NCBI GenBank assembly: GCA_011170285.1
Contig: DUEE01000023.1
Location: 7,283-71,282, forward strand
Origin: Dehalococcoidia bacterium
Lineage (GTDB): Bacteria; Chloroflexota; Dehalococcoidia; Dehalococcoidales; W498
Length of the DNA: 64,000 nucleotides
Reading direction: 5' to 3'
Shown: positions 2,108 to 39,581 of the stretch, one piece after another
Position numbering within the stretch: the stretch's first letter is position 1
How the letters are laid out: every line of letters starts with the position of its first letter
Position numbers and translations under genes: made by a program
The notes under the pieces: model-generated
Seen by the model: the letters and a program-made list of their open reading frames with translations, nothing else
Database searches by the model: none
What the model was told of the DNA's origin: nothing

Positions 2108-3666
2108 TTCTCCTCCACATCAATAATTTGGGCACCCATTTTTAGGGCTGCCTTTACCAGGTGATTATTTTCTGGTTGGTAAACACAGCGCACATGGCAG
2201 GAATGTCCCAGGAAATTACTCACAATTTTTTCGGCAACTTGTTGATTTTCCGGTTTCTCCATATTCTCCTTGTGGAGAGGATATTTAAAGGCTAAGACTA
2301 CAGTATCGTCTTCAAATGCCACCGGTTTAACGCCAGCACTTCTAAGAATGGCAACAGCCGCGGTTCTTTTAGTATCTTGCGGAGCTTGCTCTATAACCTG
2401 CCTCCAGTTTAGTCTCAGTTGTTCAATTTCACTGCCCGGTTGTGGTGGTGTGATGGTGACCTCTGGTGCTGGTGTGGGCACATTAGCCGGCTCAGGTTTG
2501 ATCGGAATAGGTGGAGGGTCCGCTTTTGCCGGCTGACGAAATTCATATTCATTTTGTGTGATAACACCTTCCTTTTCCTCCTCAGTGGGCAGGACACAGT
2601 CAACCAGGGCTAACTCCAGGGGTAAGGTAGAGCTCGCCAAAGACGAGTTAAAACTAAGCTCAAGCTGACCAAAGAGCTTGACTGCCTTCAATATCTGAGG
2701 TAGGGAGACTTTAGTGGCTAAATCCCTCAGGTCAGCTATGTCCTCAGCAGTAAGGTCTACAGCTTCGTTGGAGCCGGTCTTTATCAGCAAAAGCTCTCTA
2801 AGGTATTCCACCAGCTCCCGATTGAATTGCTTTAAATCCAGACCGTCGCTGTTGATACTGTTTATGGTTGCAATCCCGGCGGATATATCATTGTTCATGA
2901 TGTTCTTTGCCAGTTCTTTGGCTCGCCAGTCTCCGGTAATACCCAGCATAGCCTGAATCTGGCGGAGTTCAATGTCACCGCCATAGTAAGCGGTCAACTG
3001 CTCCAGCAGGTTTTCGGCATCTCGCAGGCTACCAGTAGACACCTTAGCCATAAGCCGCAGCCCCTCTGAGTCTATGTGGATGCCTTCGGCACTACAAATA
3101 TGGCTTAGTTTTGACACTATATCTGCCTGGGAGATGCGCCGGAAGTCAAAGCGCTGGCATCGAGACAGAATTGTGGGCAGGACTTTATGGGCTTCGGTGG
3201 TGGCTAGGATGAAGATAATATAGGGTGGTGGTTCCTCAAGGGTCTTGAGCAGGGCATTGGAGGCTTCTTTAGTTAGCATATGGACTTCGTCCATTATATA
3301 GACCTTATAGCGAGCTTGACTCGGAGCATAATTGACCCTCTCGCGGAGGTCTCGGATTTCATCAATACCCCGATTGCTGGCAGCATCAATTTCTATGACA
3401 TCCAAAGCCCTGCCCTCAGTTATTGCTTGGCAAATGGAGCAGGTATTGCATGGCTCACCCTTGCCGTTGGTAACACAATTCACTGCCTTAGCCAAAATGC
3501 GCCCGGTGCTAGTCTTACCTGTTCCCCGGGGACCACAAAAAAGGTAGGCATGAGCTACACGACCAACGGTGAGGGCATTACCCAGTGTTTGTGTTACCTG
3601 CTCCTGTCCAACTACCTCAGCTAGAGTTTGGGGACGCCACTTACGATAAAAGACTTGAGGAGACAT
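2104..3666 (-). CDS. dnaX: DNA polymerase III subunit gamma/tau
   Basis: 520 aa with WRPQTLAEVVGQE, Walker A GPRGTGKTS, a zinc module CxxCxxC and SRCQRFDF. Confidence 0.95.
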   Translation of the reverse strand: MSPQVFYRKWRPQTLAEVVGQEQVTQTLGNALTVGRVAHAYLFCGPRGTGKTSTGRILAKAVNCVTNGKGEPCNTCSICQAITEGRALDVIEIDAASNRGIDEIRDLRERVNYAPSQARYKVYIMDEVHMLTKEASNALLKTLEEPPPYIIFILATTEAHKVLPTILSRCQRFDFRRISQADIVSKLSHICSAEGIHIDSEGLRLMAKVSTGSLRDAENLLEQLTAYYGGDIELRQIQAMLGITGDWRAKELAKNIMNNDISAGIATINSINSDGLDLKQFNRELVEYLRELLLIKTGSNEAVDLTAEDIADLRDLATKVSLPQILKAVKLFGQLELSFNSSLASSTLPLELALVDCVLPTEEEKEGVITQNEYEFRQPAKADPPPIPIKPEPANVPTPAPEVTITPPQPGSEIEQLRLNWRQVIEQAPQDTKRTAAVAILRSAGVKPVAFEDDTVVLAFKYPLHKENMEKPENQQVAEKIVSNFLGHSCHVRCVYQPENNHLVKAALKMGAQIIDVEEK

Positions 3667-3822: not shown

Positions 3823-4995
3823 TTATAGTAGTGAGGGTAAATCCTTTGCCGACTCTTCTACTCCTTCAATTTTGCGCCCGATATCCTCTTCTCTTTCTTT
3901 AATCTCATGAAGAAAGGTGGTCGATTTAATATAGTAATTCCTGACCTTTTCCACTTCACTAAGTTCAGACAAGATTACAGTTATATCCATCAGCCCTTTT
4001 TCCCTGGGGTAATCGCCGTTCCTTATTACAGCCTCCGGAAGCACGTCTTTTAGATAGTTGCCGAGTTCCTTAACCATATCCATATTCATTTCCTTAGCTG
4101 GAGCAGAGAGAAGGTATAATGCTCTATGTGAATCCGCAGGGTTACATCTAAGTGATAGCTCACTTATAGCTTCGTCCATTGCCTGGATTCCCTTGTGGGT
4201 TTCGGTGCTTTTTCCCCTGAAATTACGTCCGCCACAGGGAAATCTAAATAATGGAAGTTGTGATTTACCATAGCCCATTACTGTCCATCCTACCAGGGTC
4301 TGTATTATGTCTCCAGCATCAAGCAACTTTGACCCAATATATTTGCGCTTTTTCTCCTCGCCAGCACAAAGTAGATTGTAGAACGGTTCAACTATTAGGG
4401 CATTGATTTGAGCCAGGTTGTTTCTAAGTGAGAAGTCCTTTCTAACATACCTTTGGTTATCAATAAGAATTACTGCATCAGCCACTGAATTGGCAGATTT
4501 AAGACATGTAGCTGAGTTATAGATGGTTCTTTCTTCTGAAGTCTCTTCATGCTCAAAGGGGAGGATAATAAGATTATATACCGGCTTATCCATATAACGC
4601 TCTTTAATGTATTGCGTCATTATTGGTATTGACCCGGAGCCAGTGCCGCCAGCGGCACCGGCAATTAGTAAGAAGGCATCTGACTCAAAGAAGTGCGGAG
4701 CAGTTCTTATAGCGTCTATAACTTTATCGGCGTCTTCCTTGGCTATTTCGGCACCCAGTTCATTTATCTTACCTACGCCATGACCACCAGTTTTTCGACC
4801 TCCGATGAGAATTCTATGCTGGTAATCAGGTTTTATATGGGATAGCCCACTTAAATCAGCAGCATCTGTGTTTATAGCAAAAGCACCAGTAGTTATCTCA
4901 ATCCTACGCGTGCTGCGCGCCCTTTTATTTAGTCGGGCAAACTCATCGGCAATCCTACTGCCGCATTGTCCAAAACCTATAACAACTAATTTCAT
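3823..4995 (-). CDS. tubulin/FtsZ-superfamily GTPase, CetZ/tubulin-like rather than FtsZ-like
   Basis: 390 aa. T1 loop IGFGQCGSRIADEF and G-box AGAAGGTGSGS are the tubulin/CetZ type (GGTGSG). The canonical FtsZ at 32797 has GGGTGTG instead. Other motifs: GHGVGKINELGAEIAKED, PVYNLIILP, LIDNQ, NGDYP. Confidence 0.8.
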   Translation of the reverse strand: MKLVVIGFGQCGSRIADEFARLNKRARSTRRIEITTGAFAINTDAADLSGLSHIKPDYQHRILIGGRKTGGHGVGKINELGAEIAKEDADKVIDAIRTAPHFFESDAFLLIAGAAGGTGSGSIPIMTQYIKERYMDKPVYNLIILPFEHEETSEERTIYNSATCLKSANSVADAVILIDNQRYVRKDFSLRNNLAQINALIVEPFYNLLCAGEEKKRKYIGSKLLDAGDIIQTLVGWTVMGYGKSQLPLFRFPCGGRNFRGKSTETHKGIQAMDEAISELSLRCNPADSHRALYLLSAPAKEMNMDMVKELGNYLKDVLPEAVIRNGDYPREKGLMDITVILSELSEVEKVRNYYIKSTTFLHEIKEREEDIGRKIEGVEESAKDLPSLL

Positions 4996-5084
4996 TTCTC
5001 ACCCCGATACTAAAATTCTAGCTATTTTAAGCATACCTATATGGTAATGTCAATCCTGATAGCAACAGGAATCCCTATTGCCAG

Positions 5085-6107
<1,023 letters not shown>

Positions 6108-6137
6108 TCACGTTTTTTCTTTAGCTTGCTCTTTCAC

Positions 6138-7442
<1,305 letters not shown>

Positions 7443-7928
7443 CTATTTGTCTATAATAAAGCTAAGAGCTTTATTCACTGCCTCAACTGCATTTTGAGCT
7501 GGGATAATTGAGTTATCCTGCTGTGCATTTCTGGATAATGACCAGGTGTTTAACCCGATAACAGGGATGCCACTTTGTAGAGCGTGGCTTATCTCAGACA
7601 GGGTACCATAGCTGCCCGCAATAGCGATAACTGCCTGGGCTGATTTGACTACGGTAATATTTCTAGCGTAGCCTAGACCAGTAACTATAGGAATTTGGAC
7701 ATAGGGATTAGCCGATTGGCGGCTATCCCCGGGTAGAATGCCGATAGTTATCCCACCCTCAGAACTAGCTCCTCGGCAGGCTGCCTCCATAACTCCACCC
7801 AGACCACCACAAAATAAGATAGCCCCTCGCCTGGCTAGCTCACGACCCACCTCTTCAGCTAGCTGGGCCTCCTGTGGCGAACATTGACTGCCCCCAATAA
7901 CGGCGATGAACCTCTTTTTTTTTGTCAT
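7443..7928 (-). CDS. TIGR00725/LOG-like Rossmann-fold protein
   Basis: 161 aa with IAVIGGS...GGLGGVMEAACRGA...GILPG, the LOG/TIGR00725 pattern. Confidence 0.65.
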   Translation of the reverse strand: MTKKKRFIAVIGGSQCSPQEAQLAEEVGRELARRGAILFCGGLGGVMEAACRGASSEGGITIGILPGDSRQSANPYVQIPIVTGLGYARNITVVKSAQAVIAIAGSYGTLSEISHALQSGIPVIGLNTWSLSRNAQQDNSIIPAQNAVEAVNKALSFIIDK

Positions 7929-8080
7929 TTAGAACATCCTTTTCTTAAATAAGTATAGGAATTATATCACCCGAGCCCAAATATTAGCAAAGAATGGTAC
8001 TCATTCAAATAATTAATGACGCACGACTCCCTTTTTGTCACCACCAAGCATACACCCTCTCGTCATTGCGAGTCCTTCGG

Positions 8081-8110
8081 TTTATCCTTCACCCTTTGGT
8101 GAAGGATAAA
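8081..8110. repeat. perfect 13-bp inverted repeat (hairpin) between pth and the TIGR00725 gene
   Basis: TTTATCCTTCACC (8081-8093), loop CTTT, GGTGAAGGATAAA (8098-8110). It lies 41 nt downstream of the pth stop. No clear U-tract follows on either strand. Confidence 0.5.
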
Positions 8111-8150
8111 AGACGAATCAATGGCTTAAAAAAACAATCCAAAGAGAGAG

Positions 8151-8732
8151 TTAATTATACTTATTCATAGCTGCCGCTAAACCTTCGGTGAGGAGGCAGA
8201 GGATGGCTTCGCTCACTTCAGGTATAACCTTAATGATGGTTTGTTTTTCATCAGGGGTGAAATCACTAAGTACATAGTTAACAATCTCACCCTCACTAAA
8301 GTCAATGAAGCCCTCGTTTTTAACAGGTCGTCCGATGCCTACCCGAAGGCGAAGGAAATCCTGGCTGCCTAGCTCAGTGATGATGGAATAAATTCCCTTG
8401 TGTCCGCCGGAGCCACTGCCGTGGCGAATACGAATTTTACCCAGGGGAAGGTCAAGGTCATCATGGATGACCAGGAGGTCATCGAGGTTGATACTAAATT
8501 TCCTTATCAGCCGTCTTACTGATTGTCCGCTTAGGTTCATATAGGTTTGGGGTTTCGCCACTACTATCTTATAGCCGGCTACCTCACCAGTGCCAATTCG
8601 GGCTTTTCCTTTCTTTTTATCAAATCGGATGCCCTGTGTGCGGGCAAAATGGTTGAGGCAAGTGAAGCCCACATTATGGCGGTTATTGGCGTAACCCCGC
8701 CCCGGGTTACCTAATCCTACAATTAACTTCAT
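8151..8732 (-). CDS. pth: peptidyl-tRNA hydrolase
   Basis: 193 aa with LIVGLGNPG..Y..NRHNVGF and GHKGI. Confidence 0.95.
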   Translation of the reverse strand: MKLIVGLGNPGRGYANNRHNVGFTCLNHFARTQGIRFDKKKGKARIGTGEVAGYKIVVAKPQTYMNLSGQSVRRLIRKFSINLDDLLVIHDDLDLPLGKIRIRHGSGSGGHKGIYSIITELGSQDFLRLRVGIGRPVKNEGFIDFSEGEIVNYVLSDFTPDEKQTIIKVIPEVSEAILCLLTEGLAAAMNKYN

Positions 8733-8733
8733 A

Positions 8734-10782
<2,049 letters not shown>

Positions 10783-10947
10783 TTAACCTTGATAATAGCC
10801 TGTTTTTACATTTATTATATCCTATATCTGGGTAAAAGATAAATTTATAATAAAATGGGACTTGCCCCATTCTGTGTCATGCGGTAAACTAGGGTAGTTA
10901 GCAATTACCTCCTTATAGATTTGTTAGACGAGGACTAGAAAGCAATC

Positions 10948-22496: not shown

Positions 22497-25400
22497 TTAA
22501 TTTGTCGTGTTCAACGGAGACAAATTCTCAGCAATGATTGAAAGCGCTTTAGGGCCTCTTCTTTGTATCTTCCCATCAACTACTAGCCAACCTTCGCGGA
22601 ACAAGACTTGCCCACATTTTTCCTGAACATTAGCAAATACGGTTACATCAGCTATTCCGGTACCATCCTCCATAATCACATACACTACCCTATTCCCATT
22701 TCTTGTAGGAGGTGTCTGGTAGCGAATTACTGAGCCAGCAATTCTAACAGTCTTGCCGGTAGCTACTGAGGGCAGGTCTTTCATCCGAGTGAATCCATTG
22801 TCAAAGGGTAAGAAATCTAATGGATGCGCTGATAAATCTAGAGACAGAAGCTCTCTTTCAATTAGCATCTTTGTCTTAACATCGCTTCTTACTGCCTCTT
22901 TTATTATCCCTGGTTCCAGCCTTTCGTCTTCAAAAAAGGCTCTGGCTCCCCGACCTACTATGCGTTTCAGTTTCATCAGTTCGGGAAGCTGTGAGAGCAA
23001 TTCACTTCTATCATCGAGAGAATCGAAGGCGTTGACCTTGAGCAAGTTCTCTACAATAGGCTGACTGGTGTTTGTTCTCAAGACAAAGTCCCTCAGTGAA
23101 GTGAATTTGCCATTGGCTCTTTCCGATAATATAGATTCCATTACCTCTTTTGACATTCCTTTTAGTTGCCTGAGACTAACTCTTATTGCTCCATTTTCTA
23201 CAGTATAGTGGTCAGTGGAGTAGTTGATATCGAGGGGTAATATTTTAACTCCGAACCTCTTGGCATCGGCTATCAGGACTCGCGGTGGGTAATACCCCAT
23301 AGGCTGGTTTGACAGTACCGCGGCGAAGAACTCGGCAGGATAATGGCATTTTAGCCAGAGAGTCTGGTAGGCAATGACAGCGTAGGCAGCGGCATGGGCT
23401 TCGCAAAATCCATATGCAGCAAAGGAAGCTAGCTGCTCAAAGACCTTCGATGCGAGAGCCCGATCCACACCACCGCCGACAGCACTGGAAATAAAGAAGC
23501 CCCGCATCTTTTCCATTTCCTCTTGGGTACGGTCATGGGTCATAGCTCTTCTGAAACCATCAGCCCCGGCATAGCTCATGCCAGCCAGGTCATGTGCCAC
23601 TTTCAATACCTGTTCCTGGTAGAGTATCACTCCCAGTGTTTCACCCAGGGCATTCTTTAACCTTGGGTGAAGATAGGTTACTGGTTCTTTACCGTGTCTT
23701 CTAGGCAGGTAAAGCTTGTCCATGTTTGACTTGAGAGGTCCCGGTCTGACCAGGGAAATTGAAACTATTATGTCTTCAAAGCGGTTGGGCAACAGTCTCC
23801 CTGCCATCTCCCTCTGTGCTGGTGACTCCAGTTGGAAGGTGCCAATTGATTTACCGTCACAGAGCATGGCGAAGGATTCAGGGTCATTTCGGTCTATCCT
23901 GTCCAGATCAATATCAATGTCTCTGGCCTTCTTTATATTGGACAGCGTATCCTCGATGACAGTTAAGGTAGGCAGTGCCAGGATGTCCATCTTGACAATG
24001 CCCAACTTCTCAATATCATTTTTATCATACTGGCTGATGATGTCACCACCGCTGGACCATTCCAGAGGAACTAGGTCTGAGAGCCTGCCATCTCCAATCA
24101 GCAATCCCCCCAGGTGAACTGACATGTGCTTGGGGAACCCATCAATGGCAGCACACATCTTGAAGAACTTGGCAAGCTCAGGTCGTTTATAGATATCGCT
24201 CTTCTTTAACTCGGGATAGGAATCTGCGTATTCCAGGAGTTGAGATGCCGACAGGTAATGAATGCCCTTACAGGCTTCGCCAATTAGCTCTTGAGGTATT
24301 TGCAGGGCTTTACCTACATCCCGGATAGCTCCCCTAGCCATATAGGTGTTAATGGTGCCGACACAGGCAACATTTTCGGCCCCATATTTTTGATAGATAT
24401 AGTCTCTCACTTCATCTCGGCGCCGGCGGTCGATGTCCAGATCAATATCGGGCGGCTCATACCGTAGAGGATGCATAAAGCGTTCAAAGAGCAGGTCATG
24501 CTCGATAGGGTCAACATTGCTGATATCCAGGGCATAGACGACCAGGCTGTCTACGGAACTGCCTCTTGCCTGGCACCTTATACCGTGTTCCCTTGCCCAA
24601 CGGACAATATCCCCGACGACGAGGAAATAGCCACAGAAGCCGAGTCTGCTTATTATGTCAAGCTCATACTCCAGGCGATTTCCGATTTTCGGTGTTAATG
24701 AGCTATACTTCCTTAAAGCTCCGGCCCGGGCTATCTTTGATAGATAACTGCAGTCGTTTTCGCCTCTGGGAGTATCAAATCTGGGGAAATGCAGTTTTCC
24801 TGTTTCCAGTTCCAGGCTACATCTCGAAGCTATCTCCTCTGTCATAGTTATTGCTTCAGGTAGATCTCTAAAGAGCTTGGACATCTCTTGCGACGACTTC
24901 AGGTATTGCTCCACAGTGCGGCAGCTCGGTAACTGAGACACCGGGATATTCAGGTCAATAGCATTGAGCAGTTCCTTGACTCTGTATTCCTCCATTTCAG
25001 CATAGTGGACATTGTTGGTGGCCACTATGGGTATGCCTTCTTCTTCAGCAAAGCTGGCAAGTTGGTGGCTGCTGCTCATTCCCTCTCTGGATGGATAGCG
25101 GATGAGTTCCACGAAGAAGTCACTTCCGTAGATTTCCCGGTAGAAACGAGCTGCTTCCTTGGCTTGCTCCACTCTACCTTTCTCAATCAGGGATGGCAGT
25201 TTACCTCTGCTACAGCCAGACAGGGCTATCAAGCCAGCATTAAACTTGCTTAGCATCTCCCCAGTGGCGACAGGCTGTCTACCTCGGTTTGCCAAGTGAG
25301 CTTCGGTGAGCAGCCGGCACAGATTAGAGTAGCCCTTTTTATTCTTGCAGAGCAGGGTGAGATGGTAGTTATCTTCCAGGCTGATTTCTACACCTACGAT

Positions 25401-25583
25401 GGGCTTTATGCCCAGAGCCTTAGCCTTCTCATAAAACCTAATGGCTCCTGTTAGCCGGTTATGGTCGGTTAGAGCCAGAGCGGGCATTTCTAGTGCCTTT
25501 ACCTTCTCCAAAAGTTTGTCCAGAGAAGAGGCACCGTCAAGAAAGCTATATTGGGAGTGGACATGAAGGTGAATAAAACCCAT
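22497..25583 (-). CDS. dnaE: DNA polymerase III alpha-family (C-family) polymerase with DnaE2-like architecture
   Basis: The start is re-set to ATG at 25583 (MGFIHLHVHSQYSFLDGAS, PHP domain), with GAGG 8 nt upstream. The track ORF instead extends upstream to 25748. About 1028 aa. The protein ends right after the OB fold (TVRIAGSVIRYQTPPTRNGNRVVYVIMEDGTG...), so no tau-binding C-terminal domain is visible. Confidence 0.88.
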   Translation of the reverse strand: MGFIHLHVHSQYSFLDGASSLDKLLEKVKALEMPALALTDHNRLTGAIRFYEKAKALGIKPIVGVEISLEDNYHLTLLCKNKKGYSNLCRLLTEAHLANRGRQPVATGEMLSKFNAGLIALSGCSRGKLPSLIEKGRVEQAKEAARFYREIYGSDFFVELIRYPSREGMSSSHQLASFAEEEGIPIVATNNVHYAEMEEYRVKELLNAIDLNIPVSQLPSCRTVEQYLKSSQEMSKLFRDLPEAITMTEEIASRCSLELETGKLHFPRFDTPRGENDCSYLSKIARAGALRKYSSLTPKIGNRLEYELDIISRLGFCGYFLVVGDIVRWAREHGIRCQARGSSVDSLVVYALDISNVDPIEHDLLFERFMHPLRYEPPDIDLDIDRRRRDEVRDYIYQKYGAENVACVGTINTYMARGAIRDVGKALQIPQELIGEACKGIHYLSASQLLEYADSYPELKKSDIYKRPELAKFFKMCAAIDGFPKHMSVHLGGLLIGDGRLSDLVPLEWSSGGDIISQYDKNDIEKLGIVKMDILALPTLTVIEDTLSNIKKARDIDIDLDRIDRNDPESFAMLCDGKSIGTFQLESPAQREMAGRLLPNRFEDIIVSISLVRPGPLKSNMDKLYLPRRHGKEPVTYLHPRLKNALGETLGVILYQEQVLKVAHDLAGMSYAGADGFRRAMTHDRTQEEMEKMRGFFISSAVGGGVDRALASKVFEQLASFAAYGFCEAHAAAYAVIAYQTLWLKCHYPAEFFAAVLSNQPMGYYPPRVLIADAKRFGVKILPLDINYSTDHYTVENGAIRVSLRQLKGMSKEVMESILSERANGKFTSLRDFVLRTNTSQPIVENLLKVNAFDSLDDRSELLSQLPELMKLKRIVGRGARAFFEDERLEPGIIKEAVRSDVKTKMLIERELLSLDLSAHPLDFLPFDNGFTRMKDLPSVATGKTVRIAGSVIRYQTPPTRNGNRVVYVIMEDGTGIADVTVFANVQEKCGQVLFREGWLVVDGKIQRRGPKALSIIAENLSPLNTTN

Positions 25584-25593
25584 AGCTGCTACC

Positions 25594-25842
25594 TCAATCG
25601 AGAATCCTGGAAAGAAACCAACTCTCACCAAGCTTATAAAGCTCATAGGTACCTTTGCTTGAATTGCTAGCGTTAACGCGAACAAAAAGGCGTATTGCTT
25701 TTCCGTTCCACCACTCGGATGGTTCCCGCCACCAGCCGATAACCTCATTAACCCGGTAGAGTCGTTTCCTCCAGATAAAGGCGGTTATCAAGGAATCTTC
25801 TTTCCTGTGTACTTTTATTGGTTCACCAATAAGCTTCGACAT
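25594..25842 (-). CDS. 82-aa Trp-rich protein co-transcribed with the DnaE2-like gene
   Basis: GGAG lies 8 nt upstream of the ATG. The stop is 10 nt before the dnaE ATG. Sequence: IWRKRLYRVNEVIGWWREPSEWWNGKAIRLFVRVNAS...YELYKLGESWFLSRILD. Confidence 0.6.
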   Translation of the reverse strand: MSKLIGEPIKVHRKEDSLITAFIWRKRLYRVNEVIGWWREPSEWWNGKAIRLFVRVNASNSSKGTYELYKLGESWFLSRILD

Positions 25843-25873
25843 CGCATTGGCTCCGGAGGGAAAGGGAATTACT

Positions 25874-25903
25874 ATTATATTAGAACATATGTTTCATTGT
25901 CAA
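25874..25903 (-). promoter_or_regulatory. strong sigma-70 promoter for the orf82-dnaE operon
   Basis: Read on the minus strand: TTGACA (25903-25898), 18-nt spacer, TATAAT (25879-25874). It sits 31 nt upstream of the ATG at 25842. Confidence 0.6.
25882..25895. promoter_or_regulatory. LexA (Cheo/SOS) box-like palindrome inside the promoter spacer
   Basis: AGAACATATGTTTC fits GAAC-N4-GTTY of the Gram-positive-type consensus CGAACRNRYGTTYC. It lies wholly between the -35 and -10 elements. Confidence 0.55.
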
Positions 25904-32796: not shown

Positions 32797-33927
32797 ATGG
32801 CAAAAACGAGCTTTGTTTCTAACCCAGCCAACATTAAGGTAATCGGTCTAGGTGGTGGTGGCTGCAATGCTGTAACCCGCATGGTCAGGGAGGAGATTCA
32901 AGGTGTAGAGTTCATCGCCGTGAATACCGATGCCCAAGCGCTGGCCATTACCGAAGCCCCAACCCGTATCCAACTTGGAGAGAAGCTTACCAAAGGATTA
33001 GGCGTAGGTGGTGACCATACATTGGGTCAGAAAGCAGCCGAAGAAAGCAGCGACGAGCTTAGGCAAGTCGTCTCTGGGGCTGATATGGTATTTATCACCT
33101 GCGGTATGGGTGGTGGTACTGGCACCGGGGCGGCACCTGTTATTGCTGAAACAGCTAAGCAAAGTGGAGCCCTCACTATTGCCGTAGTTACCAAACCATT
33201 CACCTTTGAAGGTGTCCGCCGCTGTCAAGTATCAGATGAAGGCATTACCCGCCTGTTAGGCAAGATTGATACCCTTATTATTATCCCTAATGACCGCTTG
33301 CTCGACCTCTGTGACCAGAAGACACCGGTGGATAATGCTTTTAAGCTAGCCGACGATGTTCTGCGCCATGGTGTTCAGGCTATCGCTGAAGTTATCACTG
33401 TCCCTGGGATGATTAACCTTGACTTTGCCGATGTAAAGACAGTAATGAAGGATGCTGGTCCGGCTTGGATGTCCATAGGTACCGGCTCGGGTAAAGACCG
33501 GGCGGTAAATGCAGCCAAAGAAGCCTTAGCTAGCCCCCTGCTCGATGTCTCCATAGACGGGTCAAAGGGCGTGTTGTTCAATGTCATCGGTGGTAGCAGT
33601 CTCACCCTGTTTGAAGTTAATGAAGCGGCTGAGGTAATCAAGCAAGCGGTGGACCCTGATGCCAACATCATTTTCGGGGTGGCTCATGACCCTACTATGG
33701 ATAACGAGATAAAGATTACCCTGATTGCCACTGGATTTACTTCCAAGATAGGGATGCCCGGTGCTAACCAAGAAGAGGAGCTTACCCAAATGCTTCAGGG
33801 CTTAAAGAGTGAAGAGGAACTAGATGTTCCCTCTTTCCTGCGCCGCCCATTATTCAGCCATCGGCGCCAAGCAGTACCTCCCAATACCAAACAGGTGAAG
33901 ACACCGTTACGCACTCTGACCCCTTAA
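32797..33927 (+). CDS. ftsZ: cell division protein FtsZ
   Basis: 376 aa with [29 protein letters not shown] and NLDFADV. Confidence 0.97.
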
Positions 33928-33981
33928 AGCTCTCGGGTACCTTCCCCATTAACTGAGGGAAGCCCCCGAGACCAGCGCAAA

Positions 33982-34021
33982 GGCTGTAAGTGCTAATGCA
34001 CTACAGCCTTCTTGTTTGTTT
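33982..34021 (+). terminator. intrinsic terminator after ftsZ
   Basis: Stem GGCTGTAAGTGC / GCACTACAGCC with one bulge, followed by TTCTTGTTTGTTT. Confidence 0.65.
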
Positions 34022-34058
34022 ACCATCTTATGATAAACCTCAATAGCCCCTATAACCC

Positions 34059-34087
34059 TTGACAAATACTACATATTGTGGTATTCT
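34059..34087 (+). promoter_or_regulatory. sigma-70 promoter of the nrdR operon
   Basis: TTGACA (34059-34064), 17-nt spacer ending in TGg, TATTCT (34082-34087). Confidence 0.6.
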
Positions 34088-34112
34088 AGTTTTAATATCC
34101 TATATAATGTGG
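34066..34112 (+). promoter_or_regulatory. tandem NrdR boxes
   Basis: ATACTACATATTGTGG (34066-34081) matches 13/16 and ATCCTATATAATGTGG (34097-34112) matches 12/16 of the recalled consensus acaCwAtATaTwGtgt. The boxes are 31 bp apart and overlap the -10 element and the TSS region. Confidence 0.6.
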
Positions 34113-34121
34113 AATATTGCT

Positions 34122-34667
34122 ATGAATTGCCCTTATTGTAGTTACCATGATTCTAAGGTTGTTGATTCTCGCGATGTAAATGATGGCATACGCCGCCGAC
34201 GTCAATGCTTAAGGTGCGGCTCCAGGTTCACTACCTATGAGCGACTACAACCGGCTAGTCTCTTTGTTATTAAGAAAGACGAGAGGCGTGAGGAATTTAA
34301 CCGAAATAAACTGCTAACCGGTATTCACAAGGCATGTGAAAAACGACCATTGCCTATGGGCACCGTTGATAAGCTTGCCGATGAAATAGAAGCTGAGCTT
34401 TGCCGCCTGGGTAAGGTTGAGATACCCAGTGCTGTCATCGGTAACATGGTAATGGAAAGGTTAAAGAGCCTAGATTATATTGCCTATATCCGTTTTGCCA
34501 GCGTCTACCGTGAGTTTACTGACATCACGGCCCTAAAACAAGAGGTAGACACCCTGGTTAGCAGCGAAGCTGAAACACCTGCGCCCACTAGCCAGCTCCC
34601 CTTACTTCCCAGTGAGCAAGTAGGGAGACCCCTTACGAGACAAGGACGAGTCAGAAGAAGTAAATAA
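34122..34667 (+). CDS. nrdR: transcriptional repressor NrdR
   Basis: The start is re-set to ATG at 34122 (MNCPYCSYHDSKVVDSRD...RRRRQCLRCGSRFTTYE, zinc ribbon). An ATP-cone follows. Confidence 0.93.
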   Translation: MNCPYCSYHDSKVVDSRDVNDGIRRRRQCLRCGSRFTTYERLQPASLFVIKKDERREEFNRNKLLTGIHKACEKRPLPMGTVDKLADEIEAELCRLGKVEIPSAVIGNMVMERLKSLDYIAYIRFASVYREFTDITALKQEVDTLVSSEAETPAPTSQLPLLPSEQVGRPLTRQGRVRRSK

Positions 34668-34715
34668 AATTAACCTAAACCAGGAGCCAGAAACGAAAAC
34701 ATTAGGAGGAGGAAA

Positions 34716-35054
34716 ATGAGAATAACGCCTAGCCAAAAAGACATCAATGAGAGAAAGGACATTTGGAAAGCAATATGCTGGCGGATGAACGAGAGAAGGA
34801 TCATGCCACAGGAACTTGCTCGTCTGACAGGATACTCGAAAAACCTTATCGAGAAAGGAATAGGCGGCGATTCTGTACCAGTAACAGAGGATTTTTTGCA
34901 GAATTGCGTTACAGCCTTCGGTCTAACAAATGCCAGGGCAAGGTTTTTTGAAGATACGCCTGATATTCTATCACACGACGAGCTGGTGGAACTCATCAAG
35001 CCACCACCGGCAATGCCTCCTCGGCAGGGTAACTTTTGGGACTATAATGATTAG
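34716..35054 (+). CDS. XRE-family HTH protein
   Basis: 112 aa with AGGAGGAGG upstream and the HTH IMPQELARLTGYSKNLIEKGIGG. The stop is 9 nt before the ImmA-like gene. Confidence 0.7.
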   Translation: MRITPSQKDINERKDIWKAICWRMNERRIMPQELARLTGYSKNLIEKGIGGDSVPVTEDFLQNCVTAFGLTNARARFFEDTPDILSHDELVELIKPPPAMPPRQGNFWDYND

Positions 35055-35063
35055 GAGTTATTA

Positions 35064-35945
35064 ATGGGTATAGACTACTTAATCGGTAACAGCTTCACTA
35101 CCCAGGTAGTACCACTATCCGTCAATTTGGATCAAGCTACCAGTCTTATTGTTGAACGAGCCAGACAGTTGTTGAACCAATTGATTAAGGACAGGGGACA
35201 TGATAAACCGCCGTTTTTGCCCGAAGAATTTGCTCGCTTGCAGGGTATCAAGAAATTTGTTAAAGCTGACCTCGGAAAAGTGAGCGGTGTCCTACTCAGA
35301 TTTCATGACGGTTATGTGATTAAGGTTAACCAAAACCACAACCCGGCTAGACAAAACTTCTCCTGTGCTCACGAGATTGGGCACACTTTACTTAGTGAGC
35401 TGAAGCTAGAACTCAACACAGAGAATATTGAGTTCCGAACTTTCAATCCACAAGCTCATGCAATAGCTCATTCAAAAACTAGAGAACGCCTATGTGATGT
35501 CGCTGCTACCGAACTACTCATGCCAGAGTTGGTTTTTAGAGAATATTTGTCAGGTTTTGGTTTGTCCGTACAATCGATTGAGCGATTGGCAAACGTCTTT
35601 AAAGTTTCCATTCGTGCCGCCGCCTGGCGGATTGCTGAAGTTAGTACGGAACCTTGCATTGCCCTTCTGTGGAAGCCGCACCGAAGCGCCAAGCCTAAAA
35701 CGCTTCGGCTAGCCTGGCGTGCAGGCCCAGGGGGAAAATCGAGAGGCAAAGCTAACTATATGCCAGTGCATACACTTGTTAGATACCCCTCCAAATTGCA
35801 TCAAGCTTATGAAAATGATACCCCTGTTGAGTCTTTTAAACTTTTTAAGCTCAATACTGTTACCAAGCGTTGCCCTATGGAATCCAGAGGTTTTGGACGC
35901 AAGGAAACGAGATACGTTATCTCTCTAGCCTTCCTTGATAGATGA
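35064..35945 (+). CDS. ImmA/IrrE-family (COG2856) zinc metallopeptidase
   Basis: 293 aa with the HEXXH motif CAHEIGHTLL and a downstream ATELLMP motif. An extra C-terminal domain of about 110 aa is present. Confidence 0.8.
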   Translation: MGIDYLIGNSFTTQVVPLSVNLDQATSLIVERARQLLNQLIKDRGHDKPPFLPEEFARLQGIKKFVKADLGKVSGVLLRFHDGYVIKVNQNHNPARQNFSCAHEIGHTLLSELKLELNTENIEFRTFNPQAHAIAHSKTRERLCDVAATELLMPELVFREYLSGFGLSVQSIERLANVFKVSIRAAAWRIAEVSTEPCIALLWKPHRSAKPKTLRLAWRAGPGGKSRGKANYMPVHTLVRYPSKLHQAYENDTPVESFKLFKLNTVTKRCPMESRGFGRKETRYVISLAFLDR

Positions 35946-35980
35946 ACTGAGGGAAAGAAATACTAGATTCGGGGGATACC

Positions 35981-38590
35981 ATGTCAAGTAATAGTAATAA
36001 GTATAACAACGGTGAAGGATTTATTAATCGTACCGAAATTCTCAGGGCTGTTGTTGCTGATGCTGAGTCAATCGGTATACGTGATAGAAATAAGATAGAG
36101 CAACTCACCGCTCAGGTGATTGAACGCCTAGAACAGCAGCAAACCCTGCCCGGAATGGAACACCTGGTGCCCAAGCCTCGCCTTCTTCAGAAACACCTGC
36201 CCACAGATTCTGAAATCCGGGCTGCAGTGAAGGAAATCTTAGCTGCTGAAGAACCGGCTAAGCCGGAGGAGGTTAAACCTAAAATGAAAACCCAAATTAA
36301 AGAGATGCCTATTATCCCCACCAAGCCAAAGGTTCAACTGACTCCTGGCATTAATCTTACTGAAAATGCCAGCCGAGTTCTGGAGAGAAGATACCTGAAG
36401 AAAGACAAAACGGGGCAAGTTATTGAGAAGGTAGAGGAGATGTTCCGCCGTGTAGCACAGACTATCGCCTCAGCTGAGCTCATCTACGACCCTAAGGCAG
36501 ATGTCAAGGCAAGGGAGGAGGAGTTCTACCAGTTGATGGCTAATCTAGAGTTCCTGCCTAACTCGCCTACTCTGATGAATGCGGGGAGGGAATTAGGGCA
36601 ACTGTCAGCCTGCTTTGTCCTTCCCATTTACGACTCAATGGAATCCATCTTTGATGCAGTAAAGAATACGGCGCTCATCCACAAAAGTGGCGGCGGGACA
36701 GGGTTTTCCTTCTCCAGTCTAAGACCAGAAACAGATAGAGTAGGCTCCACCGGTGGTGTCGCCAGTGGCCCTGTATCCTTTATGCGAGCCTTTGACGTTG
36801 CCACTGATGTCATTAAACAGGGTGGAATGCGCCGTGGGGCAAATATGGCTATTCTTAACATTGACCACCCCGACATTATGAAATTCATCGGCGCCAAAGA
36901 AGACCCTGCCGCCTTTACCAACTTTAATCTCTCGGTAGCTGTAACCACAGCGTTTATGGAAGCAGTCAGGTCTGACACCGACTATAACCTGATAAATCCA
37001 CGCACTAATGAAATAGCGGGCAAGCTAAATGCCATGGAGGTATTCTATAAGATAGTGGATATGGCATGGAAAACAGGCGACCCCGGTATTGTCTTCCTTG
37101 ACCGGATAAATAAGGATAACCCCGTTAAGCATTTGGGCGAAATTGAAAGCACCAATCCCTGCGGGGAGCAGCCGTTACTCCCCTACGAATCGTGTAATCT
37201 GGGCTCCATCAATCTAGCCAGGATGCTGCGAACGACAAACGGAACCACCGATATTGATTATCCCAAGCTAGCTGAGACGGTAAGGATTGCTATCAGGTTT
37301 CTAGATAATGTCATCGGTGTTAATAAGTTCCCCCTCCCGGAAATAAAGGACAAGACCAATAAGACGAGAAAGATTGGTCTCGGAGTGATGGGGTTTGCTG
37401 ATATGTTAATCCAGATGGGCATCCCCTACGACTCAGAGGAGGCGCTAAAAGTAGCAGAGAAGGTAATGGCCGATATACAACACTATGCGACTGAAGCTTC
37501 TAAAGAAATAGCACAAGAAAGAGGTGTATTTCCCGCTTTTGAGGGAAGCATCTATGACTGCCCCGATGGTATCAGAGTGAGAAATGCCACCAGAACTACT
37601 ATTGCTCCCACCGGTACCCTGAGCATAATAGCTGGCTGCTCCAGCGGTATTGAGCCTCTCTTTGCCCTGAGCTATACCAGAAACATACTGGATAGTGACC
37701 AGCTTATCGAGGTTAATCCCTATTTCGAGCAAGTAGCCAGGAGCGAGGGCTTTTACTCCGAGGAGCTTATGCGACAGCTAGCCGCAGGGGCTAAACTCCA
37801 AGATACAGACGGAGTTCCTGACGATATCAAACTACTATTTGTCACTGCCCACGAAATAACACCTGAAGGGCATGTCAAGATGCAAGCCGCCTTTCAGAAG
37901 TCTACCCACAACGCCGTCTCTAAAACAGTCAACTTCCCCCAGGATGCTACCAAGGAAGACATAGCCAAAGTGTATATGATGGCTTATGAAGAGGGATTAA
38001 AGGGAATAACTATCTACCGGGATAGAAGCCGTGAAGCTCAGGTTTTAACCACGGGCAAGGTAGAAAAGGTTGAGAGTGCCGGGCTTACCCCCAGGGGGAG
38101 AGCTAAAACTACCACAGGGATTACCGAAAGGGTAACCACCGGTTGTGGCTATATCTATGTAACCGTGAACTCTGATGAGCAAGGAATATGCGAGGTCTTC
38201 TCCACACTGGGCAAAGCTGGAGGCTGTGCCTCTGCCCAACTGGAAGCCATCTGCCGACTCATCTCCCTGGCATTGAGGTCTGGCATAGATGTCGCCTCAG
38301 TGGTAAGGCAGCTTCGTGGCATCCGCTGTCCATCTATTGCCTGGGAAGAGGGTAAGTCTATCCTGTCCTGCGCTGATGCCATTGCCAGCGTTCTGGAAAA
38401 ACACATAAGCGGTGATAGTGGCAACGGGAAAGAAAGCTCAAAAGTTGAGGATGCTCTAAACAGTAAGGATAGTGGTCATGAGGTAGATATAGCCCGGAAC
38501 ATAGCCGGGCAGTGCCCCGACTGTGGCAACCTTCTAGTATATCAGGAGGGCTGCTTCATCTGCCCCACCTGCGGCTATACGAAGTGTTAA
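35981..38590 (+). CDS. nrdJ: adenosylcobalamin-dependent (class II) ribonucleotide reductase
   Basis: 869 aa with [22 protein letters not shown], a thiyl-radical loop region and a C-terminal zinc ribbon CPDCGN...CPTCGYTKC. About 115 aa of N-terminal extension. Confidence 0.93.
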
Positions 38591-38634: not shown

Positions 38635-39303
38635 ATGAAAAACCATCAAGAGCTAGCTAGGGAGTTCGAGGAGACTCTCAAGCTAGGGAGTTGTCTAATA
38701 GGGGTTAGGTATAGCGATAAGCCAGACTCCAGGGTAGACACAGAGAGAAAGCTTGCTGCTTGTGAAGCTATCGATATTGTCAGAAGAGAAAAAGCAATGG
38801 TTAATCTTTCATCGGAAACTTGCAGTTGCATAGGCGGAAAATACTACCTTGGCTTAGACCCTGTTCCTAAAGAGCAAATCATCAAGGTGGTCATGGATGT
38901 TCACAAAATGTTCGCCTCGGAACAACTGGCACGGCAATTCTTAGACAATGTACCACCGCCGAGTGGTCGGGGCAACTTTGTGGTCATAGCGCCCCTCACA
39001 GAGGTGACCGTAGAGCCTGACCTGGTCCTTTCTGTCTGTACTGCCGAGCAAGCGAATAGAATAGTTAGCCTTCTAATGTACTCAGGGTTGAAACCTTTTA
39101 CCTATAATCTGGTCAGTGCTGGATGCACCTCCCTGGCAAATCCTATGGTAACTGGTGAAATAGACATAAATTTAATAACTGACCATGCCAGAAGAAGGGT
39201 GCCGAATTTCGCAAGTAATGAACTTATTGTAGCTATGCCCTTTGAGAAATTTAAGGAAGCGTCGGCTAACATACCATATGCTGGTGCAGTAATAAAATGT
39301 TAG
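38635..39303 (+). CDS. DUF169 domain protein
   Basis: 222 aa. The pattern LKLGSCLIGVRY...CEAIDIVRREKAM...CSCIGGKYYLG matches my recollection of DUF169 (COG2043). Confidence 0.6.
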   Translation: MKNHQELAREFEETLKLGSCLIGVRYSDKPDSRVDTERKLAACEAIDIVRREKAMVNLSSETCSCIGGKYYLGLDPVPKEQIIKVVMDVHKMFASEQLARQFLDNVPPPSGRGNFVVIAPLTEVTVEPDLVLSVCTAEQANRIVSLLMYSGLKPFTYNLVSAGCTSLANPMVTGEIDINLITDHARRRVPNFASNELIVAMPFEKFKEASANIPYAGAVIKC

Positions 39304-39450: not shown

Positions 39451-39581
39451 CAGACTGACTACCATAGTGGGAAAGTAGAGACGCGGCAGACAAGACCAGA
39501 GAGATTATTGCCTAACCTTTAAAGCTTGCTTTGTTGTCAGCTTCCTATTTGACAATATTAATATTAGATAAGTAAAATGGC

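Follow-up and report, generated by a model that had tools for sequence, protein, structure and literature searches.

What does a gene pair for a small putative regulator and a metalloprotease do inside the operon for a ribonucleotide reductase (RNR)? The question is raised by contig DUEE01000023.1 of a Dehalococcoidia bacterium (assembly GCA_011170285.1), of which we analyzed positions 7,283 to 71,282 of the forward strand, a stretch of 64,000 nt termed the window below. Between nrdR, the gene of the nucleotide-sensing repressor NrdR, and nrdJ, encoding the class II RNR, it carries an open reading frame (ORF) of 112 codons followed by one for a COG2856 protease of 293 aa. A first-pass annotation of the letters alone had regarded the two as a domesticated, stress-sensing switch, a reading that our analysis supports in part. 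In silico, the locus presents an intact peptidase with a partly conserved patch for single-stranded DNA (ssDNA), a partner of XRE fold, strict linkage to nrd genes and one NrdR-controlled unit. By analogy, the reading that we favor, tentatively and at somewhat less than an even chance, is a domesticated IrrE/CapP-type cleavable-regulator switch within an NrdR-controlled operon, whose DNA-binding partner would act at unseen sites.

The tight packing of both ORFs between nrdR and nrdJ held to the nucleotide (Table 1). Both are intact and lie on the + strand, each is preceded by a good Shine-Dalgarno sequence, and the gaps measure 48 nt from nrdR to the small ORF, 9 nt from there to the protease gene and 35 nt from the latter to nrdJ. 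The outer genes were firmly identified, NrdR by TIGR00244 (E = 1.7e-54) and by the Pfam families Zn_ribbon_NrdR and ATP-cone, and NrdJ by PRK08665 (1220 bits) together with Pfam Ribonuc_red_lgN/lgC and TSCPD.

The protease matched Pfam Peptidase_M78 (PF06114) with E = 3.1e-16 and 59.7 bits against a cutoff of 22, and its strongest profile match was the PADLOC capP model (E = 1.1e-29). A sequence search of the PDB returned PprI of Deinococcus geothermalis (8slm, E = 1e-8), IrrE of D. deserti (3dte) and, weakly, CapP (7t5t). We obtained an AlphaFold model from 24 family members with a predicted local distance difference test score (pLDDT) of 79.8, and Foldseek aligned 272–283 columns, nearly the whole model, with 8slm, 3dte and 8sln at E values of about 1e-11. 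The PprI structures matched in this way comprise both apo and ssDNA-bound forms; CapP 7t5t followed at 2.5e-7, and PrpR of Mycobacterium tuberculosis was matched too, presumably through entries 6cz6 and 6cyy. The motifs and the additional C-terminal domain seen in the first pass were thus borne out, with HEIGH at H103–H107, ELLMPE at residues 150–155 and a predicted GAF/PAS-like β-sheet domain at ~196–293. Because the model aligns along nearly its full length, the extra domain would be the GAF-like domain of the IrrE/PprI/CapP group, and the predicted structure places the protease in this three-domain subfamily and not in the short ImmA subtype.

The zinc ligands and the catalytic glutamate (H103, E104, H107, E141) were invariant in the 24-sequence alignment and aligned with H82, E83, H86 and E113 of IrrE (numbering of PMC12828697), so the protein is predicted to be a catalytically intact zinc peptidase. 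Furthermore, R96 and F99 were invariant in the 24 sequences and aligned with R85 and F88 of PprI in the PDB-search alignment. In PprI, R85 is one of the three residues (R85, R207, R267) of the essential ssDNA-binding patch 1, and F88 stacks on a base in the PprI–ssDNA crystal structure (PMC10904395); in CapP, R90 takes the position equivalent to PprI R85, and R90, W196, Y264 and W280 line the ssDNA groove (PMC13228613). W203 and R283 of the protease are likewise invariant and are at most candidates for ssDNA contacts of the GAF-like domain.

The identity of the small protein as an XRE helix-turn-helix (HTH) protein is putative. The ORF itself stood as annotated; the XRE assignment is weak by sequence, the best Pfam match (HTH_31, E = 0.0077) reaching 17 bits against a cutoff of 27, below all Pfam HTH thresholds, and it is the predicted fold that speaks for it. 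Eleven of 23 type A family members (see below) matched HTH_31, the best with E = 1.5e-5. The AlphaFold model of the small protein (pLDDT 74.6) consists of helices at residues 7–27, 31–38, 42–49 and 58–67, forming a predicted N-terminal XRE-fold HTH domain (~1–68), followed by a disordered linker (~69–86; low model confidence at 73–82), a short helix (87–94) and a proline-rich conserved tail, PPPAMPPRQGNFWDY. All top Foldseek matches were XRE proteins, namely C.BclI, HipB, ClgR and the N-terminal domains (NTDs) of CapH and DdrO, with restriction-modification controller proteins among them; the template-modeling (TM) score was ~0.7 and the root-mean-square deviation 1.1–1.5 Å over ~60 residues, at E values of only 0.09–0.6. 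In the PDB sequence search, the small protein alone gave chance matches only, and its family profile matched a designed HTH protein weakly. When 1.84 billion representative proteins were searched exhaustively with the profile, the family amounted to just 78 clusters, nearly all of 80–125 aa. Conservation is strongest in the C-terminal segment DE(E/C)xxLLxP..AMP...FW[D/E] and not in the recognition helix. A tryptophan in helix 1 is nearly invariant, and the C-terminal amphipathic helix is conserved. R74 is nearly invariant in type A only.

A partner with so minimal a C-terminal region might also be masked instead of cut, as in a non-proteolytic anti-repressor of the Rir/Crh type, in which the protease would bind the partner and block its oligomerization. 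Such a mechanism is documented for one COG2856/XRE pair (PMC6868357). We nevertheless consider it quite improbable here, given that the HExxH...E site is fully invariant and the protease under purifying selection, that the extended IrrE/CapP architecture is present, the characterized members of which cleave (PMC10904395, PMC13228613), and that Rir lacks both part of the extended metallopeptidase signature and the GAF domain (PMC6868357, PMC12828697).

The position of the pair proved to be conserved. A homologue scan with one genome per GTDB species returned 32 loci, 28 of them from Chloroflexota/Dehalococcoidia, and in all of these 28 the protease gene adjoins nrdR and/or nrdJ, at identities to the window of 32–72% for the protease, 67–87% for FtsZ and 46–79% for NrdJ. 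The order (ftsZ)-nrdR-small ORF-protease-nrdJ was found in 24 of the 28, and in one the contig ends right after the protease gene; in the remaining three the order is nrdR-nrdJ-small ORF-protease. Four more metagenomic nrd-linked loci (L044, L045, L047 and L050 in our numbering) came from another homology search that started from the divergent subtype; of these, L047 and L050 show the main order and L044 and L045 the order nrdR-nrdJ-HTH-protease, which thus occurs in five of 32 nrd-linked loci in all. An ORF for ~100 aa occupies the gap in every locus with enough sequence. Gene content outside the operon varies from locus to locus, so that the pair has no conserved neighbors other than nrdR and nrdJ. 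The identical protease is present on 15 contigs from several metagenomes. In many Dehalococcoidia species, the pair thus belongs permanently to the nrd operon and is conserved by vertical descent. Cultured Dehalococcoides and Dehalogenimonas did not turn up in the pattern scan, which could not tell absence.

These data leave little room for a recent prophage or integrative and conjugative element (ICE) insertion between nrdR and nrdJ. Such a scar would have been indicated by a pair missing from the nrd locus of close relatives and flanked there by prophage genes; we found conserved synteny, the order being kept in dozens of species. The GC content of the pair (0.44–0.47) equals that of its flanks. 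The neighborhood was judged from the precomputed Pfam annotation of a contig with identical genes, which covers roughly the first 50 kb of the window; within it, and thus within ±10 kb of the pair and in the first 30 kb, there are no integrase, phage or ICE genes, as had been stated before, and core genes only, among them ligA, dnaX, recR, recO, dnaE-like, priA, trmD and rplS. The 42–64 kb part of the window itself was covered by a list of ORFs. The PHROGs matches of the protease were restricted to generic M78 or regulator families. Nothing specific favors a scar beyond the general association of ImmA/ImmR with mobile elements, and because the position of the pair is conserved across species we regard this origin as hardly credible. 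A recent mobile insertion was accordingly rejected on synteny, composition and neighbors.

More distant relatives point to where the module may have come from. Proteases of at most 33% identity are not nrd-linked: two relatives from Planctomycetota (L039, L042) have a true DdrO-like partner of 135 aa, another relative is a stand-alone pair, and a further protease is paired with a 407-aa HTH protein. In locus L048 (SDBT01009110.1, ~4650–10857), a protease 30% identical to the L037-type query stands with a type-A-like partner of 100 aa. It is surrounded by a serine recombinase gene, a tRNA-like reverse-strand sequence recognized by eye and, downstream and co-directional, genes for an N6/N4 methyltransferase and a ResIII/RE_endonuc protein; this pair probably regulates a mobile restriction-modification island. 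Because the distant relatives stand in mobile or defense contexts or are paired with DdrO, and all 32 loci with a protease of about 40% identity or more are nrd-linked, the term "domesticated" is a fair description, and the pattern is the one expected if the nrd operon had taken up a mobile- or defense-element module a single time and passed it on by vertical inheritance.

The same relatives could be taken as a sign that the pair is an autonomous toxin-antitoxin (TA), addiction or defense-regulator module that simply rides along in an essential, strongly expressed operon without any functional tie to RNR. COG2856/XRE pairs have been proposed as TA-like mobile stress modules (PMC2701414, as cited in PMC6868357). 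There is a weak NCBIfam match to the spr1629 repressor/antitoxin family, a distant relative resides in a restriction-modification/recombinase island, and the partner is fast-evolving and cassette-exchanged (see below), as conflict-driven genes are. A passenger of this kind is nonetheless difficult to reconcile with nrd linkage in 32 of 32 close loci at an FtsZ identity of 67–87% and in two independent gene orders, with the lack of a separate promoter for the pair, and with a distribution that is neither sporadic nor mobile-like, mobile genes being absent from the annotated surroundings. We therefore hold it to be very doubtful.

Transcription of the unit appears to depend on one promoter. The sigma-70-type site upstream of nrdR (Table 1) is the sole strong promoter-like site of the operon. 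Its −35 hexamer and the layout of the boxes recur upstream of nrdR in 26 related loci, mostly with TTGACA and in a subgroup with a TTGC-type hexamer. Two NrdR boxes accompany it, 31 nt apart, one between the −35 and −10 hexamers, where it also lies in the related loci, and the other directly 5′ of the nrdR start codon. This tandem pair is unique in the window, the four other single matches being at chance level. The palindrome's identity as the NrdR box was established by Rodionov and Gelfand, as cited in PMC4409342. From nrdR to the end of the DUF169 gene downstream of nrdJ, we found no convincing internal promoter or terminator, the scan being at chance level; Rfam revealed no RNA element in the locus; and a B12 riboswitch or other leader 5′ of nrdJ was ruled out by the 35-nt gap and the missing Rfam match. 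NrdR repression lifts when dNTP (deoxyribonucleoside triphosphate), or dATP, is low. Because the genes form a single tight unit whose sole conserved promoter carries two NrdR boxes, the pair would be co-produced with the reductase when NrdR repression lifts, and the sequence leads one to expect a common, NrdR-controlled transcript of the pair with nrdR and nrdJ.

The gene between nrdR and the protease gene is itself variable. Type A small ORFs occur in 13 loci, the window included, and type B in 12, while the loci with the pair downstream of nrdJ have a third, more canonical HTH form (type C). BLAST cannot align types A and B; hhalign aligned them collinearly with 93% probability (E = 2.4e-7), and one database member is an A/B hybrid. 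Among type C partners, that of L037 matched HTH_3 with 23.5 bits against a cutoff of 23, L044 has HTH_19/31/3 on record and L045 matched HTH_3 weakly; no HTH match was obtained for L035 and L036. Two loci illustrate the exchange. Between L015 (type A) and L018 (type B), the DNA is 97–100% identical over the promoter and nrdR codons 1–131, and the protease gene is 80–100% identical from about codon 20, whereas the intervening ~590 bp, which span the NrdR tail, the small ORF and the protease N-terminus, are only ~35–45% identical. Loci L013 and L017 show the sign of a recent exchange, with a synonymous substitution rate (dS) of 0.17 in the small ORF as against 0.6–1.4 in the flanks. The ratio of nonsynonymous to synonymous rates (dN/dS) was 0.3–1.0 for the small ORF, 0.09–0.20 for the NrdR core and 0.17–0.26 for the protease, indicating purifying selection on the latter. 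Protease similarity is not sorted by partner type (A–A 0.58, B–B 0.52, A–B 0.55); we found no type-specific column among protease residues, and no co-variation of the NrdR tail with partner type was seen. On these sequence comparisons, the gene for the partner behaves as a hypervariable cassette that exists in two exchangeable sequence types. The contigs are metagenome-assembled and single mosaics could be chimeras; both types recur in many independent assemblies. Neither this variability nor the order nrdR-nrdJ-HTH-protease had been noticed in the first pass.

The exchangeable types may also coexist: L013 and L019, which belong to one metagenome-assembled genome (CSMAG_2455, JAUWOR01), are two protease-nrdJ loci with type A and type B partners, so that either the genome has a pair of nrdJ operons or the bin mixes strains. 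Another feature of this region is a conserved mini-ORF of 10–17 codons (MN(T/A)A(N/K)H...), read by eye, that opens at an ATGA overlapping the nrdR stop codon and reaches the ribosome-binding site of the small ORF. It is present in L011–L013, L015–L018, L020, L023, L032 and L034, not in the window, and might serve translational coupling or encode a leader peptide.

Drawn by analogy from the PprI/DdrO and CapP/CapH systems and their relatives (PMC10904395, PMC13228613, PMC6868357, PMC12828697), the favored mechanism would run as follows. ssDNA arising from damaged or stalled forks would bind the groove between the peptidase and the GAF-like domain, as in PprI/DdrO and CapP/CapH, and the activated protease would cut the partner in the linker before the last helix (~residues 69–86) and so inactivate it. 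The intact partner would be a negative regulator, the loss of which would add an input of DNA damage or replication stress atop the nucleotide sensing of NrdR. In the least certain step, the partner would most probably be a DNA-binding repressor acting at sites outside the visible operon. Since the module itself is under NrdR control, it would be made at low dNTP levels and fired upon accumulation of ssDNA.

Several findings weigh against this switch. The first group concerns activation and cleavage. ImmA, a distant homologue, is not stimulated by ssDNA (PMC12828697), and because of this unresponsiveness, activation by ssDNA cannot be taken as a general property of the family. Profile alignment, which stops where the GAF-like domain starts, gave no assignable counterparts of PprI R207 and R267. 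The CapP-type cysteine-switch loop is absent, no cysteine being found in residues 108–140 after H107 in the family alignment; this loop exists in about 33% of CapP and is absent from IrrE, and is thus optional and not defining (bioRxiv 10.1101/2022.04.27.489752). The known cleavage sites are L106|R107 in DdrO, F82|R83 in CapH and F95|M96 in ImmR, and no conserved hydrophobic|Arg cleavage motif could be assigned in the partner. The partner also lacks a DdrO-like three-helix dimerization domain, its putative recognition helix varies among family members, and type B partners have no HTH signature detectable by sequence.

The second group concerns the operator. The searches covered the locus, the related loci and the window and had low power for sites elsewhere in the genome. 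When the 170 nt preceding nrdR were aligned for the window together with 26 related loci, nothing was conserved besides the −35 and −10 hexamers and the two NrdR boxes, and type A and type B loci were indistinguishable in this promoter. Palindromes of at least 7 + 7 nt were found in none of 22 loci within −200 to +30 of the small ORF; the inverted-repeat scan of window positions 33900–36100 yielded no convincing operator, and no palindrome recurred in the window's 34 intergenic regions, many of which precede replication or repair genes. Palindromic operators resembling the region upstream of 34716, a search for which had been proposed in the first pass, were thus found neither in the 22 loci nor in the intergenic regions of the window, and inspection of the sequences upstream of non-nrd relatives revealed no transferable motif. 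Because near-identical loci bear different partner types, a fixed operator set is hard to reconcile with the data. At the sequence level, these findings argue against autoregulation in the style of ImmR, DdrO or CapH at the pair's own promoter, and a simple autorepressor of this kind is disfavored, the NrdR boxes being the sole conserved elements of the promoter and the partner a swapped, hypervariable cassette.

These same observations bring a target at the protein level into play, in which the XRE-fold partner would act chiefly by way of its conserved C-terminal helix and tail and bind NrdR, as a co- or anti-repressor, or NrdJ, for instance at its 120-aa extension (see below), until the protease removes it on stress; dNTP synthesis would then be tuned with no operator of its own. 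Such a target is a serious alternative because no cis operator was found and the partner is swapped without a change of promoter; types A and B interchange before the same promoter, NrdR core and protease. It would also agree with the strongest conservation of the partner family lying in the C-terminal segment instead of the recognition helix, with nrdR and nrdJ as the only conserved neighbors in both gene orders, and with a swapped cassette that takes in the NrdR tail and the protease N-terminus. All characterized partners of COG2856 proteases (ImmR, DdrO, CapH, Crh) are, however, DNA-binding repressors (PMC6868357, PMC13228613), a canonical HTH appears to be kept by type A and type C partners, and the NrdR tails are unsorted by partner type, so that on balance we deem a protein-level target unlikely. 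Rather less likely still is a more far-reaching variant, in which an ssDNA-sensing protease would be joined to a fast-diversifying, XRE-derived adaptor acting directly on NrdR or the reductase, the A/B polymorphism being kept by conflict, e.g., with phage proteins.

Table 1. Features of the nrd locus in the window, with domain limits of the protease given as residues
Feature	Position	Strand	Description
Terminator-like hairpin and T-run after ftsZ	33980..34021	+	AAGGCTGTA...TACAGCCTT then CTTGTTTGTTT; read from the sequence by eye
Sigma-70-type promoter	34059..34087	+	TTGACA-17 nt-TATTCT, extended TG, score 10/12
NrdR box 1	34068..34082	+	ACTACATATTGTGGT; between −35 and −10 hexamers, same position in related loci
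NrdR box 2	34099..34113	+	CCTATATAATGTGGA; 31 nt downstream of box 1, directly 5′ of nrdR start codon
nrdR	34122..34667	+	181 aa; Zn-ribbon and ATP-cone repressor with 36-aa C-terminal tail
Small partner, type A	34716..35054	+	112 aa; predicted XRE-fold HTH domain
Protease	35064..35945	+	293 aa; IrrE/PprI/CapP-type M78 metallopeptidase
Protease domains			Peptidase ~20–165 (H103, E104, H107, E141); helical linker ~166–195; GAF/PAS-like ~196–293
nrdJ	35981..38590	+	869 aa; B12-dependent class II ribonucleotide reductase
DUF169 gene	38635..39303	+	Pfam DUF169, E = 1e-31; starts 44 nt 3′ of nrdJ

The operon lies downstream of mraZ-rsmH-ftsA-ftsZ and is followed by the DUF169 gene and Wood–Ljungdahl genes. 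The hairpin after ftsZ looks like an intrinsic terminator that would insulate the nrd operon from the mraZ-rsmH-ftsA-ftsZ genes; the terminator scanner did not call it, its loop exceeding 8 nt. A DUF169 gene adjoining nrdJ was not found in the related loci, and in this lineage only the transcription unit probably ends with it; a strong promoter-like site follows next at 39549. In L022, ~200 nt separate the protease gene from nrdJ (3347–3549) in place of the usual ~35 nt and hold a perfect hairpin, ATGATGCTGG...CCAGCATCAT, which may be an added terminator or a regulatory element of that lineage.

Both outer proteins have extensions of their own. NrdR is alignable with solved NrdR structures over residues 1–145; after the ATP-cone follows the tail (residues 146–181, window 34557–34667), which was also present in 26 of 26 related loci with an nrdR match. 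It contains a conserved motif, QLPLLP, QLSLF or QLPLF (QLPLLP at ~34593–34610), then acidic and then basic residues, while NrdR of Escherichia coli has no such tail and ends at the cone. We take the motif to resemble the binding consensus for the β sliding clamp (QL[SD]LF; Hda QLSLPL), and if it were a clamp-binding motif, NrdR would be tied to the replisome. NrdJ carries an N-terminal extension of ~120 aa (window 35981–36343) that precedes the RNR all-alpha domain; it had no Pfam or NCBIfam match and, searched as the N-terminal 125 aa, no PDB sequence match. NrdJ of most related loci, including the nrdJ-first loci L035 and L037, aligns from residue 1–4.

Elsewhere in the window, a LexA-box-like sequence, AGAACATATGTTTC, at ~25881 and a perfect palindrome, TTATTGGTTCACCAATAA, at 25815–25832 mark the 5′ end of a minus-strand cassette of DUF6504 and DnaE-like (22497–25748) genes, which by its sequence looks like an SOS-controlled mutagenesis cassette. 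Given such a cassette, with its sites at 25815–25894, a LexA system is likely to be present alongside the IrrE-like pair. Apart from the canonical ftsZ (32797–33927), there is a second tubulin-family gene on the minus strand (3823–4995, 390 aa, Pfam Tubulin and CetZ_C). Two related loci stand apart. The 2.1-kb contig of L027 (JBDRCA010000053.1) has a complete nrdR-small ORF-protease-nrdJ start and is binned as 'Candidatus Altiarchaeota archaeon'; it is almost certainly a mis-binned Chloroflexota fragment. In L038 (6001–6849, MFD03726.bin.2.26), the protease is in four reading-frame pieces and the partner is cut to 82 aa, reflecting either a pseudogenized copy or frameshift errors of the assembly.

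The arrangement was not described in the literature that we searched on COG2856/IrrE/ImmA with NrdR, ribonucleotide reductase and Dehalococcoidia/Chloroflexi, and none of it mentioned nrdR-nrdJ operons with a COG2856/XRE pair; the novelty of the position had been supposed in the first pass. An IrrE/CapP-like pair in the nrd operon points to an undescribed extra layer of control on dNTP supply. How the sensing of DNA damage and replication stress is coupled to dNTP supply is only partly understood, and NrdR senses nucleotides, not damage. If the favored switch is real, the sensor protease would be a second input on the NrdR-controlled RNR operon in environmentally abundant, mostly uncultured Dehalococcoidia, and a clear case of a mobile- or defense-type module recruited into core metabolism. 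With four genes and one promoter, the locus offers a defined system for asking whether ssDNA-activated COG2856 proteases control housekeeping functions outside Deinococcus, and in its interchangeable partners of two types nature has provided an experiment on substrate recognition by these proteases. If instead the partner acted on proteins, dNTP synthesis would be under post-translational control by DNA damage or phage infection.

Compared with known systems, the nrdR-nrdJ operon itself has a precedent in Streptomyces (PMC4409342, PMC9739823). The outer genes and the type of promoter are the same there; the Dehalococcoidia have a partner and a protease gene in addition, placed either between nrdR and nrdJ or downstream of nrdJ. 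In actinobacteria, lexA presumably adjoins nrdR-nrdJ, which would place a parallel DNA-damage regulator beside these genes. ImmA/ImmR of ICEBs1 and temperate phages likewise has the gene of an M78/COG2856 peptidase right after a small XRE-family gene, and by analogy shares the general logic of a repressor inactivated by a protease. ImmA, with 169 aa, nevertheless has no GAF-like domain and is not stimulated by ssDNA (PMC12828697), and the ImmA/ImmR pair belongs to a mobile element, the excision and transfer of which it controls; neither feature applies here. From the TA-like COG2856/XRE modules, the pair differs by being fixed in the nrd operon (32 of 32 close loci) and by having no promoter of its own.

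The closest counterparts are PprI (IrrE)/DdrO and CapP/CapH. With the former, the pair shares a protease of the same three domains, for which PprI/IrrE gave the best structure and sequence matches, the same catalytic residues and the equivalents of PprI R85 and F88, a partner predicted to begin with an XRE domain that a flexible linker joins to a C-terminal part, and a chromosomal, non-mobile locus. It differs in that the partner of 112 aa ends in one short C-terminal helix instead of the three-helix dimerization domain of ~57 aa found in DdrO, that no palindrome resembling the radiation/desiccation response motif (RDRM) was found here, that the pair lies within an NrdR-regulated RNR operon, and that its partner is hypervariable, DdrO being highly conserved. 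CapP/CapH differs from the pair in its layout, the two regulator genes lying upstream of the operon that they control and on the opposite strand, and the promoter region shared by both containing the operator (bioRxiv 10.1101/2022.04.27.489752); the genes analyzed here are co-directional and operon-internal or terminal, with no operator found and no cysteine-switch loop in the protease, and their associated genes serve housekeeping dNTP synthesis, not defense. On the other hand, the capP model was the strongest profile match and CapP 7t5t a near-full-length structural match. The partner is similar to CapH in size, with a predicted HTH domain and a short region C-terminal to it, the CapH NTD ranks among its fold matches, and a distant relative with a type-A-like partner stands beside a restriction-modification system. 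A tryptophan in the HTH domain and a hydrophobic C-terminal helix, both elements of the recognition of CapH by CapP (PMC13228613), are present as well. By analogy, the pair thus most probably works like PprI/DdrO or CapP/CapH, and what is possibly new is a defense- or mobile-type sensor in a housekeeping operon, a damage input to RNR control and an exchangeable partner cassette.

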